A DNA stretch of 64,000 nt, taken from assembly GCA_018715045.1 (NCBI GenBank), contig DVMH01000027.1, positions 6,306 to 70,305 on the forward strand, in the 5' to 3' direction. Below are positions 6,866 to 31,184 of this stretch, piece after piece; position 1 is the first letter of the stretch, and each line of letters opens with the position of its first letter. The stretch is from Candidatus Avidehalobacter gallistercoris (lineage in GTDB: Bacteria > Bacillota > Dehalobacteriia > UBA4068 > UBA4997). The translations under genes and the position numbers were made by a program. The notes under the pieces were generated by a model. The model was given only the letters and a program-made list of their open reading frames with translations, made no database searches and had not been told where the DNA came from.

Positions 6866-6965
6866 GCCATTGTTTCTCCTTTCCTGCTAATCCAGCTTTC
6901 AACGCTTGACTACATTGATCCTTTTCTGTGACAACCCTATACCCTGATAGCCACCTGGTAGAATA

Positions 6966-6994
6966 ATCATACCAGAAAAAAAAAAAAATACAAT
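6966..6994 (-). promoter_or_regulatory. Predicted sigma-A-type promoter of the giant adhesin gene, with a spacer made almost entirely of a T13 homopolymer
   Basis: The - strand reads TTGTA-T13-CTGG-TATGAT. The -10 is TATGAT (6966-6971) with an upstream TGG (extended -10-like). The spacer is CTGG plus a T-run (A13 at 6976-6988 on the + strand). The -35-like element is TTGTAT/ATTGTA. The predicted 5' UTR is about 95 nt. Confidence 0.45.
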
Positions 6995-7058
6995 AACCAA
7001 TTGTAAATAGACCATAAAAATCCGGCATTATTTCCGACAGATTTCCGCTTATTACGCA

Positions 7059-7100
7059 TAAAAAAACGCCCCCGGCCAAATGGCCAGAGGCGTTTTTTTA
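7059..7100. terminator. Bidirectional Rho-independent terminator (ends hppA on the - strand)
   Basis: Stem AACGCCCCCGGCC / GGCCAGAGGCGTT with a 4-nt loop. It is flanked by an A7 run on the left and a T7 run on the right. Confidence 0.8.
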
Positions 7101-7121
7101 TGCATTTTGTTATCTATCTGT

Positions 7122-9164
7122 TTACAGGAACAGGGGCACGAAGACCAGCGCGATAATCGTCATCAGCTTGATCAGAATGTTGATGGACGGACCCGAAGTA
7201 TCCTTGAAAGGATCGCCCACAGTGTCGCCGTTAACAGCCGCCGCGTGCGCATCAGAGCCTTTGCCGCCAAAGTGGCCGCCCTCGATGTACTTCTTGGCGT
7301 TATCCCAGGCGCCGCCCGCGTTGCTCATCATCACAGCCAGCAGGAAACCGGTCACCAGAGAGCCGGCCAGCAGACCGCCCAGAGCCTCAGGCCCCAGCAC
7401 CAGGCCGACAAACAGCGGCGCAACCACAGCCAGCACAGCCGGCATAACCATCTCACGCAGAGCCGCCGTAGTAGAGATATCCACGCAGCGGGCATAATCC
7501 GGCTTGGCAGCGCCCTCCATCAGGCCGGGGATTTCACGGAACTGACGGCGCACCTCAGTAATCATATGCGAAGCCGAACGCCCCACAGCGCTCATTGTCA
7601 TCGCAGAGAACAGGAATGGCAGCATACCGCCGATAAACAGGCCGATAACCACCATCGGATTCATAATATCAATATTGGTAACTCCCGCTGCCTGCGTGTA
7701 GGCGGAAAACAGCGCCAAAGCAGTCAGCGCAGCAGAACCAATAGCAAAGCCCTTGCCGATGGCAGCGGTGGTGTTGCCAACCGCGTCCAGATTATCGGTG
7801 ATCTCACGCACATGGTGTTCCAGACCGGCCATCTCAGCAATGCCGCCAGCATTATCGGAAATCGGGCCATACGCGTCAACCGCCACCACAATGCCGGTGG
7901 TGGAAAGCATACCCACAGCCGCGATGGCAATGCCGTACAGACCGGCAAAGTAAAACGCAGCGCCGATACCGCAGCAGATAACGATGATCGGCAGCGCGGT
8001 GGAAGTCATCCCAGTGGCAATACCGGAAATGATGTTGGTCGCAGTGCCAGTCTCGCAGGAAGCGGCAATGTCCTTAACCGGCTTATAGTCAGCCGAAGTG
8101 TAATATTCGGTGATCTTACCAATCAATGTACCGGCCACCAGACCAGCCACACTGGCAATGAACACGCCGGTGTTGGTGTACATACCGTTCTGGAAAGTTT
8201 CCGGCAGAACAAACTTGCAGATAACGAACGTGCCCACGATAGAAAGCAGCGTTGCCACATATGTACCGGCGTCCAGAGCTTTCTGGGGGTTTTTGCCCTC
8301 GCCCGTGCGCACAAAGAAAGTGCCGATAATGCTGGAAACAATGCCCCAGGCCGCCAGCAGCAGCGGCACGATAACGCCCTCGCCGTTATCTCCGATAGCC
8401 AAAGACGCGCCCAGCGCAATGGCTGCAATAACAGAACCAACATAAGATTCAAACAAGTCGGAACCCATACCGGCCACGTCGCCGACGTTATCGCCCACGT
8501 TATCAGCAATAACCGCCGGGTTACGCGGATCATCTTCGGGAATACCGGCCTCAACCTTGCCAACCAGGTCAGCGCCCACGTCGGCAGCCTTGGTGTAGAT
8601 ACCGCCGCCCACACGGCCAAACAGAGCCACGGACGAAGCGCCCAGGCTGAATCCGTTAATAATGTCAGACTGACCGGGGAAAAGCAAAACCACAATACCC
8701 AGACCCAAAAGACCCAGGCCAACCACGCTCATGCCCATAACAGCGCCGCCGGAGAAAGCCACGCTCAAAGCCTTGTTCAGGCCGGAGGCCTGCGCAGCAT
8801 TGGCAGTTCTGGCATTGGCCTTGGTTGCAATACGCATACCGATATTGCCAGCCAGAATGGAGCAGACCGCGCCAATCAGGAAAGGAACGGCAGTCAGCGG
8901 ATTCAGGCCGCCCTCAGTGCCGCCGGTAATCATACCGGCCCCCACGATGACCAGCGCCATAACCACGACGAAAATAACCAGAGTTTTATACTGACGGCCC
9001 AAAAAAGCCATTGCGCCCTCATGGATAGAATTCATAATCTCCACCATGCGGTCATTGCCGGGCTCCACAGCCGTCACCCGCTTGGCCAGCACCACTGCGA
9101 ACAGCAATGCCAGCACGCCGGCCAACGCACCGATCACCGGAGCGTAATTCATAATGAAATCCAT
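7122..9164 (-). CDS. hppA: Membrane-bound ion-translocating pyrophosphatase (K+-dependent subfamily signature)
   Basis: 680 aa and polytopic. Diagnostic motifs are [76 protein letters not shown] and [29 protein letters not shown] (Ala rather than Lys) is the K+-dependent signature. H+ versus Na+ coupling cannot be told by eye. Confidence 0.95.
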
Positions 9165-9218
9165 AGTTCTCTCAAAATCCTCCTAACTTTGCCTTAAAAC
9201 GATTGAATCCCTGCGGCA

Positions 9219-9666: not shown

Positions 9667-10707
9667 ATGCACATTCACGGCGGCGACATTTACACTTATC
9701 AGAATATGCTGGATTTTTCGGCCAACATCAACCCTCTTGGCATACCAGAGAGCGTTGTGCGGGCAGCAGCGGCGGGAGCGGCGGCCTCCGCATCCTATCC
9801 CGACCCAAAATGCCGCCGGCTGAAAGCGGCTATAGCGGCGCACGAACAGACGCCGGAGGAGTATGTCGTCTGCGGCAACGGCGCAGCGGATCTGATCTTC
9901 CAGCTGGCGTTGGCTGCAAAACCCAGGCGCGCCCTGCTGCTCGCCCCCGGTTTCCATGAATATGAACAGGCTCTCCGCACTGTAGACTGCCAGGTTGATT
10001 TCTTCTATCTTAAAGAGGAAGACGGCTTCCGGCTGGCCGACGCCTATCTGGAGGCACTCACTCCAGGTCTGGATATCGTGTTTTTGTGCAATCCTAACAA
10101 TCCCACCGGGCTGGCCGTGCCGCGCCCGGCGCTGCTCCGGATATTGGAGAAATGCCGCGACATCGGCGCCCGTCTGGTCATGGATGAGTGCTTCAACGAA
10201 TTCCTGGACGAGCCCGCCGCCTATAGCCTTAAGCCAGAGCTATCCGCTTATCCCAACCTGTTCATTCTGAAAGCGTTCACCAAGATATACGCCATGCCCG
10301 GTTTGCGTCTGGGCTATGGCCTATGCGCTGACCAGGCGCTGCTGGCGGCCCTCGCCGAAGCCGCTCAGCCATGGAGCGTATCTATCCCCGCACAGGAGGC
10401 AGGGCTGGCAGCGCTCACGGAAACCGAATACGTCGCCCGCGCCAAGGCGCTGGTCAAAGACGAGCGGGAACGCCTACAAGACGCCCTGGCAGCGCTGGGC
10501 TGCCGAACCTACGGTTCTATGGCCAACTATATATTCTTCCGCAGCGTGCCGGGATTGGCTGAGGCCTGCCGCGCGCATAACCTGCTGCTGCGGGATTGCA
10601 GCAACTATCAGGGGCTTTGCCCCGGCTATTTTCGTGCGGCAGTGAAGCTGCCGGAGCAAAACAACCAACTGCTGGCCGTTCTGACTGCGGTATTAGCCGA
10701 ATTTTGA
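9667..10707 (+). CDS. cobD: L-threonine-O-3-phosphate decarboxylase (class I/II aminotransferase fold)
   Basis: 346 aa. The N-terminus MHIHGGDIYTYQNMLDFSANINPLGIPESV is characteristic of CobD. Also has CNPNNPTG and the FTKIYAMPGLRLGY PLP-lysine region. Sits in a B12 gene context. Confidence 0.8.
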   Translation: MHIHGGDIYTYQNMLDFSANINPLGIPESVVRAAAAGAAASASYPDPKCRRLKAAIAAHEQTPEEYVVCGNGAADLIFQLALAAKPRRALLLAPGFHEYEQALRTVDCQVDFFYLKEEDGFRLADAYLEALTPGLDIVFLCNPNNPTGLAVPRPALLRILEKCRDIGARLVMDECFNEFLDEPAAYSLKPELSAYPNLFILKAFTKIYAMPGLRLGYGLCADQALLAALAEAAQPWSVSIPAQEAGLAALTETEYVARAKALVKDERERLQDALAALGCRTYGSMANYIFFRSVPGLAEACRAHNLLLRDCSNYQGLCPGYFRAAVKLPEQNNQLLAVLTAVLAEF

Positions 10708-10731
10708 CGGCTGATTTGCAGCAAAAACCGA

Positions 10732-10761
10732 TTGACTTTCGCGGATTTTTTATGTTAAAAT
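10732..10761 (+). promoter_or_regulatory. Strong predicted promoter in front of the MFS-CBS gene leader
   Basis: TTGACT (10732-10737), an 18-nt spacer, then TGT-TAAAAT (extended -10, 10756-10761). Confidence 0.6.
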
Positions 10762-10793
10762 AGCTCTTGTGCCAAAGGCACCAACAACTTTAT

Positions 10794-10950
10794 AATTACA
10801 GAAAAACAAACGGTAACGACACATGTTTAGCCATGCTAGTAAATCTGATTACGGCACCGTAATACAGAGCATAGGCTGAAGCATGTGCCGTTTTTTGTTT
10901 ACCGGAAAACGAACGCCAGCGCCCAAGCGGCGTTATTTTTTTCTGTAATT
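10794..10950 (+). promoter_or_regulatory. Structured ~160-nt leader element: nested inverted repeats with two terminator-like hairpins (attenuator, unknown riboswitch or MITE-like insert)
   Basis: An outer 13-bp stem pairs AATTACAGAAAAA (10794-10806) with TTTTTCTGTAATT (10938-10950). Inside it, a long imperfect hairpin (~10813-10890, e.g. ACGACACATGTTTAGCCATGCT / AGCATAGGCTGAAGCATGTGCCGT) is followed by T6. A second hairpin AACGCC...GGCGTT (10912-10934) is followed by A-T7. No B12-box or other motif I recognise. Confidence 0.5.
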
Positions 10951-10973
10951 AATATCAGAAAGGAGATCTTTTT

Positions 10974-12842
10974 GTGACTCAGACACAAAACTCGAACAAC
11001 GTATCATCCCGAATCCGCAGGCCAGAACTAATGATTTTCGTGGCCGCCTTTTCCGCCTTTTTGGCCACTTTCAATGAAACGTTCCTGAATGTAGCGTTCA
11101 CGCAGATCATGGACGATCTGAATGTCGGCGTGGCGACAGTGCAGTGGCTTTCCACCGCCTATATGCTGGGAGCGGCGGTTATGGTGCCGATCTCGGCCTT
11201 TTTATACCGCAGCATACCCACCAGGAAACTGTACCTTTTCACTGTCGCCCTGCTGGTAATCGGCAGCGCTGTCTGTGCCTCAGCAGGTAATTTTACTGTT
11301 TTGCTGGCTGGCCGCATTGTGCAGGCCTTCGGCACCGGCATGTTGATCCCGATCGGCATGAACATCACGCTGGAAGTTGCGCCTAAGCGCAAACTGGGAG
11401 CTTATATGGGCTTAATGGGCGCAATGACCACCCTCGGCCCCTCCTCCAGCGTGATTCTGGCAGGTCTGTTCCTGGCGCTGGCCGATTGGCACGCCATGAT
11501 CTGGTTTTTCTTTACGCTGACCGTACTTTGTTTTATCTGCGGCGCACTGATGCTGGACAATATTTCCAGGCTGACCTATCCCAAGCTGGACGCGCTCTCG
11601 GTAATTTACATCAGCATCGCCCTGATCGGCATACTTTACGGCATCTCCACCGTCTTTATGGGTAATCTGAAGCTGGCCGTCGCCGTTATACTGCTGGGCG
11701 CGGTGTTTCTGAGCGCTTTTATACGGCGGCAGAGCCGTCTGGAGCAACCGCTGATCAAGCTGACTCCTCTTGCTATCAAACCCTTTGCGCTGGGCGTATT
11801 GCTGAATATGCTGGCGCTGCTGGTGATTTTCGCCATGAATATCGTCACACCGATGTTTCTGCAGAGCGGTTGGGGAGTCTCTGCGCTGGCGGCCTCGCTG
11901 ACCCTGTTCCCGGCAATTTTGCTTTCCTGCTTTTTCTCGCCGCTGGCCGGGCGCATTTATGACAAACACGGGGCCGCAATCCTGCTGCCGCTGGGCTTCA
12001 TATTGATCGGTCTGGCGGCCGGCGCTATCGGCCTCACCCATTCCACCGGCAACATCTATCTGCTTTCGCTGCTTTATATCCCGGTGATCTGCGGCTCAGC
12101 CCTGATCATCGGCCCGGTGCAGAGTCTGGCATTATCGAATCTCTCGTTTGAGGAAAATCCCCACGGCGTCACCATTATGAGCACCGGCTTTCAGATTGCA
12201 GGCTGCCTCGGCGCGTCGCTGTTTTCCGGCCTTTATTCGCTTTATCCCACAGCGGGAGGCGGCTTCACCGCCAGCTGCCTGCTTGCAGCAGCCACAGGCG
12301 CGCTCGGCCTGCTGCTGGCCCTTCTGGAGAACAAATGGAGCAATCAGCAAGCCGCTTATCACCAGACTGACAGAATGACCGGTATCGCCGCCTTTATGAA
12401 CCGCACGCCTTACAGCGTGAGCAACAGAGCCACTGCCCTGGACGCGTTGCTTTGCATGGCGGAACATAAAACCAGCGGTCTGCCTATCGTCAATGATCAG
12501 ACACAGGTCTGCGGTTTTATCTCCGACGGCGATATTATCCGTTATATGGGCGGTCTGGAAATGGAACCAAACAATTTTTCCCTGCGCTATCCGCTATGGC
12601 AGAGCCTTGACAAGCTGGACGACCGTCTGGCCAAGCTCAGCAGCCTGAAAGTTATGGAATTGGCCACCAAAGAAGCGGTCTGTATTGAGCAAAACGCCAG
12701 CGAACAGGAACTTTTTCACATCTTCGCGGATAAGCGTATCAAAAAAGTGCCGGTTCTCAACCAAGGCCGGTTAAGCGGCATTGTCAGCCGTTCCGACCTG
12801 CTGCGGCAGCTAATAAATCAGGCTATGGCCAGGCAGCAATAA
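10974..12842 (+). CDS. MFS transporter (DHA2/EmrB-like, ~14 TM) fused to a C-terminal CBS-domain pair
   Basis: 622 aa with a GTG start after a GAAAGGAG RBS. The N-terminal ~460 aa are polytopic with MFS motifs (LAGRIVQAFGTGMLIP, FSPLAGRIYDKHG). The C-terminal ~150 aa read LPIVNDQTQVCGFISDGDIIRY ... VPVLNQGRLSGIVSRSDLLRQL, i.e. two CBS motifs. Confidence 0.8.
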   Translation: MTQTQNSNNVSSRIRRPELMIFVAAFSAFLATFNETFLNVAFTQIMDDLNVGVATVQWLSTAYMLGAAVMVPISAFLYRSIPTRKLYLFTVALLVIGSAVCASAGNFTVLLAGRIVQAFGTGMLIPIGMNITLEVAPKRKLGAYMGLMGAMTTLGPSSSVILAGLFLALADWHAMIWFFFTLTVLCFICGALMLDNISRLTYPKLDALSVIYISIALIGILYGISTVFMGNLKLAVAVILLGAVFLSAFIRRQSRLEQPLIKLTPLAIKPFALGVLLNMLALLVIFAMNIVTPMFLQSGWGVSALAASLTLFPAILLSCFFSPLAGRIYDKHGAAILLPLGFILIGLAAGAIGLTHSTGNIYLLSLLYIPVICGSALIIGPVQSLALSNLSFEENPHGVTIMSTGFQIAGCLGASLFSGLYSLYPTAGGGFTASCLLAAATGALGLLLALLENKWSNQQAAYHQTDRMTGIAAFMNRTPYSVSNRATALDALLCMAEHKTSGLPIVNDQTQVCGFISDGDIIRYMGGLEMEPNNFSLRYPLWQSLDKLDDRLAKLSSLKVMELATKEAVCIEQNASEQELFHIFADKRIKKVPVLNQGRLSGIVSRSDLLRQLINQAMARQQ

Positions 12843-12922: not shown

Positions 12923-13447
12923 ATGACTGGGCTTATTCACATCTATACCGGTGACGGCAAAGGCAAAACCACCGCAGCCGTAGGGCTGGCCGTGCGCTGC
13001 GCGGGCAGCGGCGCAAACGTCGTGTTCTGCCAGTTTTTGAAAAACAACCAATCATCTGAGCTGAATATCCTGCGGATGATACCGCAAATCACACTGGTGC
13101 AGACTGCGCCTACCCTTGGCTTCTATAAAAGTATGACGGCGGAGCAGCGGACTGAATCTAAGCATATCTGCATCGGCCTGCTGGAAAAGGCGATAACTGC
13201 CGCGCTTACCAACAACGCTCGTTTGCTGGTGTTGGATGAGGTCGTGGCTGCGTATAACCACCAAATGCTTGACCGGGAACGTTTGCTGGCATTTCTGAGA
13301 GAGAAACCGGCGGAACTTGAGATTGTTCTGACCGGGCGTAAGCCCGCGCCGGAGCTTATCGAGCTGGCCGATTATCTTTCGGAAGTAACAAAGCTGAAAC
13401 ATCCGTTTGACCGTGGTATCCCCGCCCGCCGGGGCATCGAAAAATAG
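12923..13447 (+). CDS. cobO: Cob(I)yrinic acid a,c-diamide adenosyltransferase (CobA/CobO/BtuR type)
   Basis: 174 aa. Motifs: IHIYTGDGKGKTTAAVGLAVRCAGSG (P-loop), LLVLDEV and KHPFDRGIPARRGIE. Confidence 0.9.
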   Translation: MTGLIHIYTGDGKGKTTAAVGLAVRCAGSGANVVFCQFLKNNQSSELNILRMIPQITLVQTAPTLGFYKSMTAEQRTESKHICIGLLEKAITAALTNNARLLVLDEVVAAYNHQMLDRERLLAFLREKPAELEIVLTGRKPAPELIELADYLSEVTKLKHPFDRGIPARRGIEK

Positions 13448-13526: not shown

Positions 13527-13544
13527 TTTCTATACTATATAATA

Positions 13545-13710
13545 AAAACTCTGCGCGGTGCCGCAAGGCATAACAGGGAAACAGGTTCAAATCCTGTACT
13601 GTCCCAGCAACCGTGATACTGACGAACGGGCGCACAGCCACTATTCCGCAGGAATGGGAAGGAGCCCTATTAGGAAGAAGTTAAGTCGGTAGACCTACCG
13701 CAGGCAGTTA
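13545..13710 (+). promoter_or_regulatory. Cobalamin (B12) riboswitch aptamer
   Basis: Conserved core GGTGCCGCAAGGCATAACAGGGAAACAGGTTCAAATCCTGTACTGTCCCAGCAACCGTGA. B12-box region AGCCACTATTCCGCAGGAATGGGAAGG. Candidate P1 pairs CTGCG (13551-13555) with CGCAG (13699-13703). It lies directly upstream of cobQ. Confidence 0.9.
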
Positions 13711-13764
13711 CTTTCTGGGCAAAAGCATTATGGTCTTACTATGCCGTAATGAAACAGACTGGCA

Positions 13765-13834: not shown

Positions 13835-15319
13835 ATGAAAGGCATTATGATACAGGGCTGCTCCAGCGACGCGGGCAAAAGCTATGTGGCGACAGCGCTG
13901 TGCCGTGTGTTAGCCGATATGGGGCGCAGGGTTTCGCCCTTTAAGAGTCAGAATATGTCCAATAATTCATACGTCACGTGGGACGGCGGTGAGATTGGCC
14001 GGGCGCAGGGCGTGCAGGCCGAGGCCGCGGGCGTTATACCGGAGACATACATGAACCCCATTCTGCTGAAGCCGCAGAAGAACAGCGGTTCGGAAATCGT
14101 GCTGTTCGGACAGGTATATAAGAGTATGCCGGGAAGCGAGTATCACGCGCATTTTACCATGAACGAAGGCATACAGGCCGTGCGAAAGGCGCTTGGCATT
14201 ATCGCAGCCAATTACGACACTATTGTTATCGAAGGCGCGGGCAGTCCCGCCGAGGTGAACCTGAACGCGCATGAGATCGTTAACATGCGCATTGCCAGAG
14301 AAGCCGACGTACCGGTGCTGTTGGTGGCTGACGTCAACCGGGGCGGCAGCTTCGCCTCCATCGTGGGCACTTTGGAGTTGCTGGGCGAGGACAGAAACCG
14401 CGTTAAGGGAATCATCTTCAACCAGTTTCGCGGCGACATCGCCCTGTTCACCGATGGCGCCAAATGGATAGAGGAATACACCGGCGTCAAAGTGGTGGGC
14501 GTTCTGCCTTATTTCACCGATATCAACATTGAGGGCGAGGATTCTTTAAGCATCAATTTTGAGCATACCTCCGGCGCGGCGCGCCCCATTCGTATCGGCG
14601 TGGTAAAGCTACCGTACATATCCAACCACACTGATATGGAAATTTTCCGCTATGAGCCGGACGTTGACGTGCGGCAGGTGGATGAATTCACGGAACTGAC
14701 AGATTTTGACGCCATAATTCTGCCCGGAACCAAAAGCACCATCGCCGATTTGGCATATCTGGAGCAAAGCGGCTTGGCCGATAAAATCCGGCGTTTTCCC
14801 GGTTTCATCTATGGTATCTGCGGTGGTTATCAGATAATGGGGCAGAAGATGCTTGACCCGGACGGCGTTGATTTTAAGCCCGGTTTTCAGGCGGCGGGGC
14901 TGGGGCTGCTCCCACTTGTCACCCGATTTCAGCCGCAGAAGCACGTGCAGCAGCAGCAGGCGCGTGGCCTGCATCCCATGCTGGGCGGTATGACGGCGCT
15001 TGGCTATGAGATACACCTTGGCGAAAGCGAGCTCGTCTCCGATACGGCTCTTCCCCTATGGCAAATAGAGCGGCATACTGACGGCGCGGCCACCCCGGAC
15101 TTGCGCGTGGCCGGGTCATACCTGCACAATGTATTCCATAACGACACATTCCGCAATATCTGGCTGAACCAAATCCGCAAAAGCATTGGTTTAAAGCCGT
15201 TGCCCCCGGTGGATACCGCCGCCATTAAAGAACAGCAATACGCCAAACTGGGCGAATATGCCAGAAAGTATCTGGACATCGACTATATCCTCCGCCTGAT
15301 TGACGGCAAAAATCAGTAA
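13835..15319 (+). CDS. cobQ: Cobyric acid synthase (glutamine amidotransferase)
   Basis: 494 aa. N-terminus MKGIMIQGCSSDAGKSYVATALCRVL. Contains EGAGSPAEVNL and the GATase-like IYGICGGYQIMG. Confidence 0.95.
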   Translation: MKGIMIQGCSSDAGKSYVATALCRVLADMGRRVSPFKSQNMSNNSYVTWDGGEIGRAQGVQAEAAGVIPETYMNPILLKPQKNSGSEIVLFGQVYKSMPGSEYHAHFTMNEGIQAVRKALGIIAANYDTIVIEGAGSPAEVNLNAHEIVNMRIAREADVPVLLVADVNRGGSFASIVGTLELLGEDRNRVKGIIFNQFRGDIALFTDGAKWIEEYTGVKVVGVLPYFTDINIEGEDSLSINFEHTSGAARPIRIGVVKLPYISNHTDMEIFRYEPDVDVRQVDEFTELTDFDAIILPGTKSTIADLAYLEQSGLADKIRRFPGFIYGICGGYQIMGQKMLDPDGVDFKPGFQAAGLGLLPLVTRFQPQKHVQQQQARGLHPMLGGMTALGYEIHLGESELVSDTALPLWQIERHTDGAATPDLRVAGSYLHNVFHNDTFRNIWLNQIRKSIGLKPLPPVDTAAIKEQQYAKLGEYARKYLDIDYILRLIDGKNQ

Positions 15320-30984: not shown

Positions 30985-31059
30985 TCCTCGATAGCTCAAC
31001 GGTAGAGCACTCGGCTGTTAACCGAGGGGTTGTTGGTTCGAATCCAACTCGGGGAGCCA
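30985..31059 (+). tRNA. tRNA-Asn (anticodon GTT), CCA encoded
   Basis: Acceptor stem TCCTCGA/TCGGGGA. D-arm TAGCTCAACGGTAGAGCA. Anticodon loop CTGTTAA. T-arm GGTTCGAATCC. Ends in GCCA. Confidence 0.9.
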
Positions 31060-31107: not shown

Positions 31108-31184
31108 GGGCCATTAGCTCAGTTGGTTAGAGCCACCGGCTCATAACCGGTCGGTCTCAGGTTCGAGTCCTGAATGGCCCACCA
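31108..31184 (+). tRNA. tRNA with CAT anticodon (elongator Met or lysidine-type Ile2; not initiator-like), CCA encoded
   Basis: Acceptor stem GGGCCAT/ATGGCCC. D-arm TAGCTCAGTTGGTTAGAGC. Anticodon loop CTCATAA (CAT at 31142-31144). T-arm GGTTCGAGTCC. G1-C72 is paired and there is no GGG/CCC anticodon stem, so it is not initiator-like. Confidence 0.85.

Follow-up and report, generated by a model that had tools for sequence, protein, structure and literature searches.

What is encoded by the untranslated leader that separates a cobD-like aminotransferase gene (9667-10707) from the gene for an MFS transporter with a C-terminal CBS pair (GTG at 10974) in the 64-kb stretch of DNA analyzed here (hereafter, the window)? 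The initial annotation had proposed an attenuator, a novel riboswitch, or a MITE-like insert. Our analysis supports the regulatory reading, because the inner hairpin of the leader is kept in front of orthologous transporters in distant taxa, displays compensatory changes, and has its own terminator. We estimate a probability of roughly 60% that the segment 10814-10896 is a member of a leader RNA family without a match in Rfam 15, which controls exporter genes by attenuation and in which a ligand most likely turns expression on. The family is thus probably a candidate riboswitch or attenuator class of the ON type. The elements of the locus are as follows.

10732..10761, + strand: sigma-70-type promoter, with the -35 box TTGACT at 10732-10737, an 18-nt spacer, TG at 10753-10754, and the -10 box TAAAAT at 10756-10761
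10769..10781, + strand: 5'-terminal hairpin GUGCC-AAA-GGCAC at the predicted transcript start (MFE fold)
10793..10806, + strand: 5' arm of the outer stem, TAATTACAGAAAAA, a perfect 14-nt complement of 10938-10951
10815..10826, + strand: conserved 5' segment of the sensor, AACGACACAUGU, here also the 5' strand of P1 (protein-ascertained leaders)
10828..10838, + strand: local hairpin P2, UAGC, loop CAU, GCUA (covariation)
10839..10857, + strand: near-invariant core, GUAAAUCUGAUUACGGCAC (protein-ascertained leaders; core of the covariance model R1)
10858..10879, + strand: variable "anti-sensor" strand (MFE and centroid folds)
10880..10896, + strand: 3' strand of P1, AGCAUGUGCCG, and U6 tract, forming the first intrinsic terminator, T1 (folds)
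10912..10942, + strand: second intrinsic terminator, T2, AACGCC...GGCGUU (hairpin 10912-10934) followed by A-U7 (terminator scan and fold)
10938..10951, + strand: 3' arm of the outer stem, TTTTTCTGTAATTA, complementary to 10793-10806 and overlapping the U tract of T2
10960..10976, + strand: ribosome binding site AAGGAG (10960-10965) and GTG start codon (10974-10976) (sequence and ORF list)
10974..12842, + strand: regulated gene for a DHA2-type (EmrB/LmrB-like) MFS transporter of 622 aa with a C-terminal CBS pair (Pfam MFS_1 and CBS)

The near-consensus extended -10 promoter that had been noticed by eye at 10732-10761 was recovered by a consensus scan, in which TTGACT-18-TAAAAT matches the consensus at 10/12 positions and carries the TG in addition. 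A TATG(T/C)TAAAAT box is seen again in five related leaders (L003, L005, L008, L022, and L084), and transcription probably starts near 10768, immediately in front of the 5'-terminal hairpin. In relatives, matched substitutions on both sides preserve this hairpin (GUGC/GCAC in L075 and GCGC/GCGC in L003), which may serve the stability of the transcript. A second promoter-like site, GTGCCA-16-TATAAT, is found at 10769-10796 on the + strand, with its -35 box within the 5'-terminal hairpin and its -10 box TATAAT (10791-10796) overlapping the 5' arm of the outer stem, so that it could account for part of the conservation of that arm.

The transporter matches NCBIfam models for LmrB/EmrB-type DHA2 proteins, although below their equivalog cut-offs, and its nearest solved structures are those of EmrB, EfpA, and QacA. 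Together with its leader, the gene is embedded in a cobalamin biosynthesis cluster, between the cobD-like gene and cobO (12923-13447), an arrangement shared by the related locus L003 and absent in most other relatives. The same region contains a cobalamin riboswitch (RF00174, 95.4 bits, 13539-13716, + strand) upstream of a cobQ-like gene (13835-15319), and the Rfam scan located two tRNA genes further along the window (30985-31056 and 31108-31181, + strand). On the other side of the leader, two long ORFs are mutually antisense (7080-9197, + strand, 705 aa, and 7122-9164, - strand, 680 aa); the translation of the former has no match in Pfam, and on the identical contig L001, the public annotation places the gene on the - strand.

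Folding of the whole leader (10762-10985) gave a minimum free energy (MFE) of -73.7 kcal/mol (z = -6.37), and none of 200 shuffled sequences folded equally well. The structures described in the initial annotation were all recovered. The long imperfect hairpin ending in T6 is real, spanning approximately 10815-10892 in front of T6 at 10891-10896, with an MFE of -33.8 kcal/mol compared to -15.7 ± 2.7 kcal/mol for shuffled sequences (z = -6.75). The GC hairpin at 10912-10934 followed by A-T7 was likewise recovered as AACGCC/GGCGTT, also by the terminator scan. T1 and T2 thus both consist of a stable stem and a U run located between promoter and start codon, as is characteristic of intrinsic terminators and attenuators. 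Where the annotation had described two tandem terminators, both are confirmed as such, but the first is the conserved element itself rather than a separate module. Relatives also have a second terminator at the site of T2, where its sequence is unrelated.

The outer stem, described as 13 bp long, turned out to be one base pair longer, being a 14-nt inverted repeat with no mismatches, and none of 100 shuffled sequences reached as many matches. Its 3' arm overlaps the U tract of T2, and the outer stem can therefore pair only in read-through transcripts. Only the closest relatives, L003 and L075, have the repeat, at the orthologous site and with an identical 5' arm. The outer inverted repeat is not part of the conserved element. 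Other lineages display analogous pairings between flanks of different sequence, and we considered whether an outer stem could be a general feature of the family, but rejected this, because the advantage of cognate over mismatched flanks in pairing is modest (-10.4 vs. -8.2 kcal/mol). Any role of the outer stem is a putative one.

If the leader has a regulatory function, its conserved parts should recur in front of orthologous genes. The exact MFS-CBS protein is present on many gut-metagenome contigs, where the leader is identical, and orthologues with 86%, 70%, 67%, 63%, and 58% protein identity have the same core in their leaders in unrelated gene neighborhoods. Conservation in the orthologous leaders of relatives, which the initial annotation had named as the mark of a riboswitch, was thus found, and it takes the form of a covarying inner element, AACGACACAYGU - NAGC-loop-GCUN' - GUAAAUCUGAUYACGG-N-AC ... 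ACRUGUGU-U run. A scan with a 20-nt core pattern, using one genome per species, matched at least 80 stretches. Approximately 67 of the 80 matches listed are true instances, and the rest are chance matches inside ORFs. The hosts found by the pattern include Clostridia, Bacilli, Peptococcaceae, Oscillospiraceae, Anaerovoracaceae, Clostridium tanneri, C. tunisiense, and one Desulfatiglandales MAG. A second sample was composed of 80 loci of MFS homologues fetched purely by protein similarity and scanned with the covariance model R1. A match was found directly upstream of the gene in approximately 37 of these 80 loci, always on the strand of the gene, and the positive loci are essentially all those with a protein identity above ~46%. 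The element in the window scores 62.8 bits (E = 2.5e-12, with the E-values of R1 being rough), compared to 75.2 bits for the one in Caproicibacter fermentans (CP060286.1, ~3,029,938-3,030,002, in front of the MFS-CBS gene) and 63.9 bits for the one upstream of a protein of Gordonibacter urolithinfaciens (Actinomycetota). The family is thus found in at least two phyla, with Clostridia and Bacilli representing Bacillota and Gordonibacter representing Actinomycetota, and its members are biased towards gut anaerobes. Two instances are in MAGs assigned outside these phyla, L071 (record titled Muribaculaceae) and L027 (Desulfatiglandales), which could be due to horizontal transfer or mis-binning.

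The conserved part of the element is a sensor of approximately 45 nt, composed of the 5' segment AAACGACACAYGU, the hairpin P2, and the core GUAAAUCUGAUYACGGNAC. Since the genome set was chosen by an exact match to the core, the apparent invariance of the core in that set is inflated, and only 36 protein-ascertained leaders are free of this bias, although these too had to pass R1. Conservation in these 36 leaders amounts to 92-97% for the 5' segment and to 94-100% per position for the core, except for Y (alignment column 86) and N (column 91). The two helices, by contrast to the core, vary in sequence and do so in a correlated manner. In P2, 99% of the cells are paired and both sides change in 3/4 pairs, giving the variants GAGC/GCUC, UAGC/GCUA (the window), AAGC/GCUU, GUGC/GCAC, and GCGC/GCGC, with loops from 3 to more than 8 nt. 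In P1, formed by the 5' segment and the strand preceding the U run, 92.5% are paired and both sides change in 6/9 pairs; the pair Y11/R142, for example, covaries as UA (51), CG (31), and UG (11). Overall, the structure is 93.6% paired, compared to 18-59% when the partners are slid against each other, none of 500 shuffles reached the observed values, and the pairs with the highest mutual information are exactly those of P2 and P1. Both P1 and P2 are therefore helices with compensatory changes of the kind expected for a riboswitch, and the conserved sequence and structure lie in the leaders of functionally related genes across distant taxa. Many pairs in P1 are G-U (e.g., G5-U149 in 69 rows), and R1 scores only 17-29 bits on the reverse strand compared to 60-87 bits on the sense strand, which together indicate a strand-specific RNA. 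The core, being invariant, is without covariation. A putative local GUA/UAC hairpin, P3, involves positions that do not vary, except that its third pair, A52-Y86, is an A·C mismatch in 29/97 rows. A search of the alignment revealed no part of the core that could form Watson-Crick pairs with the 5' segment, no other partner that would account for the conservation of this segment, and no further covarying pair.

The family is always located on the sense strand directly upstream of genes for DHA2 MFS proteins with or without the CBS pair, DUF2798-like proteins, or occasionally SMR or MATE proteins. Counting only instances ascertained by the RNA alone, approximately 39 precede a membrane protein of ~180 aa with sub-threshold similarity to DUF2798, approximately 23 precede DHA2-type (EmrB/LmrB/EfpA-like) MFS genes with or without the CBS pair, and a single instance each is found in front of an SMR gene and of a DUF2798-like fragment that has a MATE-like gene behind it. 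All of the controlled genes are exporter-like. Their neighborhoods are otherwise varied, comprising cobalamin genes (in the window), folate, flavodoxin, aldo-keto reductase, transposase, and conjugation genes, and no conserved adjacent regulator gene was found across the neighborhoods compared. Tandem copies are found in L009/L010, L014, L038, and L107, each copy with its own P1 and U run. The tandem layout (L009/L010 2815-2972; L014; L038; L107 1414-1576) is a canonical copy followed by a diverged one, e.g., CCGUAAUUCUGACUACGG, and the tandem cassette in L009 is flanked by transposase genes. Two loci deviate more strongly. In L047 (~6960-7110), P2 has an insertion of ~45 nt, there is no U run, and a Shine-Dalgarno sequence directly follows the element in front of a DUF2798-like gene, which may represent a translational or terminator-less expression platform. 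In L123 (~800-900), upstream of a more distant MFS homologue with 44% identity, only the 5' segment AAACGACACAUAG is kept, followed by an unrelated hairpin and no core, which makes this leader a degenerate remnant or one of a related type.

How could such an element control transcription? In the window, the variable strand pairs onto the sensor in two stretches, CCGUAAU-A-CAG onto the core and AGCAU-A-GGCUGA onto the 5' strand and loop of P2, resulting in one long rod. This anti-sensor strand differs in sequence and pairing register from lineage to lineage but invariably finds a complement somewhere within the conserved block. The terminators of Firmicutes pair their 3' strand with the 5' segment, and the variable strand pairs with the core (25 sequences), with the 5' strand and loop of P2 (approximately 23), or with both (12, including the window lineage with its continuous rod). 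Where the variable strand invades P2, the terminator is in conflict with P2, whereas the class of 25, which has a local P2 and a long P3, has a terminator compatible with P2, and mutual exclusion is not evident. In a GC-rich clade, the 5' strand of the terminator is the entire P2 hairpin plus CGUAAAUC, and the 5' segment either has no partner or finds one only downstream of the U tract, its sequence still being conserved. Since the terminator of this clade consumes P2, it and the covariation-supported P2 are mutually exclusive. The conserved nucleotides are one-sided, with a partner strand that changes in both sequence and register, and the block is therefore most likely recognized in its own fold and not within the rod.

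In most family members, the U run follows directly 3' of P1. The sensor alone folds with -4.6 kcal/mol, which is no better than shuffled sequences, compared to -33.8 kcal/mol (z = -6.75) for the rod, and this large difference in stability suggests that the default is termination. In the model that we propose, the variable strand, P1, and the U run would by default build the rod terminator, so that transcription would end at ~10896, with a second stop at ~10942 in the window lineage. If the sensor were instead held in its own fold, most likely by a small-molecule ligand, the terminator could not form, and RNA polymerase would read into the MFS-CBS efflux gene. The exclusion between sensor and terminator where the latter consumes P2, taken together with the exporter partners, argues for such an ON switch, in which a ligand or factor stabilizes the sensor; both the direct binding of a ligand and the direction of the switch are what we infer from these patterns. 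A search of the window leader for an antiterminator or relay acting on T2 found none. The second terminator of L028, L048, and L037 re-uses GACACACG...CGUGUGU-U7, with a 5' strand that has the same sequence as the sensor's 5' segment and is complementary to the 3' strand of the first terminator. A relay is plausible there, with the freed 3' strand of P1 serving as antiterminator of the second terminator, and is partially seen in L005.

Several other explanations have to be weighed against this model, and the first three discussed here fare worst. A MITE-like insert, another repeat, or a DNA operator for a repressor (the CGTAA-N6-TTACG palindrome) would account for the perfect 14-nt terminal inverted repeat in the window and for the imperfect DNA palindrome within the core, but we give it virtually no credence. 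The MITE alternative raised in the initial annotation did not hold up, since pattern, repeat, and R1 searches of the 64-kb window found no second copy, the genome scan gave no more than one match per stretch among the 80 matches listed, and the position and orientation are fixed in front of a few gene families. Moreover, plasmid and viral collections contained no matches, and the outer repeat, which is missing from most family members, has no target-site duplication around it (the flanks are TA and AT); we therefore rejected a dispersed repeat. As for an operator, the G-U wobble pairs and strand specificity are the signature of an RNA, the palindrome is broken (Y = C) in ~30% of the rows, and there is no conserved regulator gene nearby. 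Only slightly less improbable is a ribosome-mediated attenuation by a leader peptide, as in other MFS and ABC-F resistance genes, which the LmrB/EmrB-like nature of the gene brings to mind and for which some leaders offer an AUG within the 5' segment or shortly before it. These AUGs in MFS leaders share no start, frame, or Shine-Dalgarno sequence, the stops differ as well, 31/97 rows have ACG instead of AUG in the 5' segment, and conservation is at the nucleotide level without third-position wobble, for which reasons this reading was also rejected. With its strong promoter, its stable hairpin, and a terminator that looks efficient, the leader would be expected to give an abundant short transcript, and the ~130-nt structured RNA could thus be an independent trans-acting small RNA gene lying upstream of the transporter by chance. 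We find this highly unlikely in view of the tandem copies and of the fixed position and orientation in front of the ribosome binding sites of two or three gene families, with often only 10-40 nt between the U run and the Shine-Dalgarno sequence, though a role in trans for the terminated product is possible.

The remaining alternatives accept a regulatory leader but differ in what is sensed or in the direction of the response. The most serious of them, which we nevertheless consider doubtful, is a protein-dependent antitermination, where the 5' segment, P2, and the core would form the binding site for a trans-acting RNA-binding protein or other trans factor rather than for a metabolite. Approximately 30 near-invariant nucleotides for which little pairing is predicted could equally well belong to a protein site, and the sensor alone is not stably folded. 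The element is, however, found in at least two phyla, moves together with the transporter in contexts flanked by transposase or conjugation genes, has no conserved neighboring gene, and matches none of the protein-binding leaders in Rfam. Known antiterminator targets such as the dual hexaloop hairpins of the ANTAR type offer no better fit, given a P2 loop of 3 to more than 8 nt, the absence of an Rfam leader match, and the lack of a conserved regulator nearby. The association with several unrelated exporter families is, on the other hand, typical of metabolite sensing, and the tandem copies, the spread across phyla, and the mobile contexts together favor a self-contained metabolite sensor over a protein site. 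A ligand could also act in the opposite direction, by binding a P1-P2-P3 three-way junction and stabilizing P1, leading to more termination. This OFF switch draws on compact forms (e.g., L038 and copy 1 of L009) with a tidy junction of P1, local P2, and P3, in which P1 is the terminator. We regard it as unlikely, because we see no alternative antiterminator that would form without the ligand, the P1-containing rod is already far more stable than the sensor, the terminator of the GC-rich clade destroys P2, and repression by the ligand would be an odd logic for efflux-type genes. We therefore favor the ligand-responsive ON switch.

The initial annotation could not assign the leader to any riboswitch class by eye, and a scan against Rfam 15 led to the same result, with no match at gathering thresholds, nor at E ≤ 10 over 10650-11050. 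The leader is thus not a member of any Rfam 15 family, including cobalamin, T-box, ykkC/guanidine-I to -IV, nhaA-I, PRPP, and THF-II. Eleven related loci gave nothing at the motif either, and short-region scans of L046 and L171 returned chance-level matches only. One of these is a match to nhaA-I (the Li+ riboswitch) in the Gordonibacter leader (L171, 2455-2497), with 20.1 bits against a gathering score of 37 and E = 0.014-0.03; we judged it to be due to chance, because it lies downstream of the motif, before the start codon, and only a GC hairpin by the Shine-Dalgarno sequence aligns. Searches of open-access text by sequence, by DUF2798, and by combinations of gene and term found no prior description of the motif. 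Since it has neither Rfam membership nor a text description, it appears to be a regulator of a known type whose family has not been catalogued, although it may have been described outside the open-access text.

Orphan riboswitch candidates are rare and valuable, as validated classes have each revealed the metabolite or ion that is monitored, and often the function of a transporter. The family described here has the hallmarks of such a class, namely approximately 30 near-invariant nucleotides, a covarying helix, variable platforms, tandem copies, unrelated exporter partners, and a bias towards gut anaerobes. We place at even odds the more far-reaching proposal that the ~45-nt sensor directly binds a toxic or gut-relevant small molecule or ion and thereby induces four mutually unrelated families of exporters (DHA2 MFS with or without the CBS pair, DUF2798-like, SMR, and MATE) in Bacillota and Actinomycetota. 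If so, export of that ligand would be the first function for DUF2798-like proteins and for the MFS-CBS subfamily, and the identity of the ligand would both name a stress compound of gut bacteria and annotate two uncharacterized families of membrane proteins. Since the element is present in species that have been cultured and sequenced (Caproicibacter fermentans and Gordonibacter urolithinfaciens), this can be put to a direct test.

Among known systems, the closest in architecture is the HMP-PP (thiS motif) riboswitch, reportedly described by Atilho et al. in eLife in 2019 as an aptamer embedded in a terminator upstream of thiamin biosynthesis genes. The two share a small sensor lying almost wholly inside the terminator hairpin, with the conserved nucleotides on the 5' side and a 3' strand that competes with the sensor fold. 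The family described here, however, has no sequence or model similarity to the thiS motif, controls exporters rather than thiamin biosynthesis, and probably switches in the opposite direction. Tandem arrangements are also known, for example, from guanidine-II hairpins and glycine aptamers, and some members of our family (L009, L014, L038, and L107) similarly carry serial copies, each with its own terminator, while the window lineage has a second terminator in place of a second copy. Guanidine-II loops contain conserved ACGR tetranucleotides, and ACGR (ACGA and ACGG) is conserved here as well, a resemblance that is a lead only. In the family described here, neither ACGR element forms the tetraloop of a GC-rich hairpin, and no match to the mini-ykkC model was found. 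In terms of the genes controlled, the nearest relatives are guanidine-IV (the mepA motif) and its variant Gd4v, which are transcriptional ON-type switches of efflux-type genes (MATE and SMR) with a terminator formed by the 3' hairpin (PMC9788692). Gd4v is an orphan-ligand variant enriched in gut metagenomes (PMC9788692). These RNAs consist of two hairpins joined by a loop-loop pseudoknot and have other conserved nucleotides. They gave no match here at E ≤ 10, and the main partners of our family, DHA2 MFS and DUF2798-like genes, are not among the genes in the Gd4v paper (PMC9788692). Like guanidine-IV and Gd4v, the family described here is nevertheless a candidate ON-type leader of exporter genes, and it shares with Gd4v the bias towards the gut.
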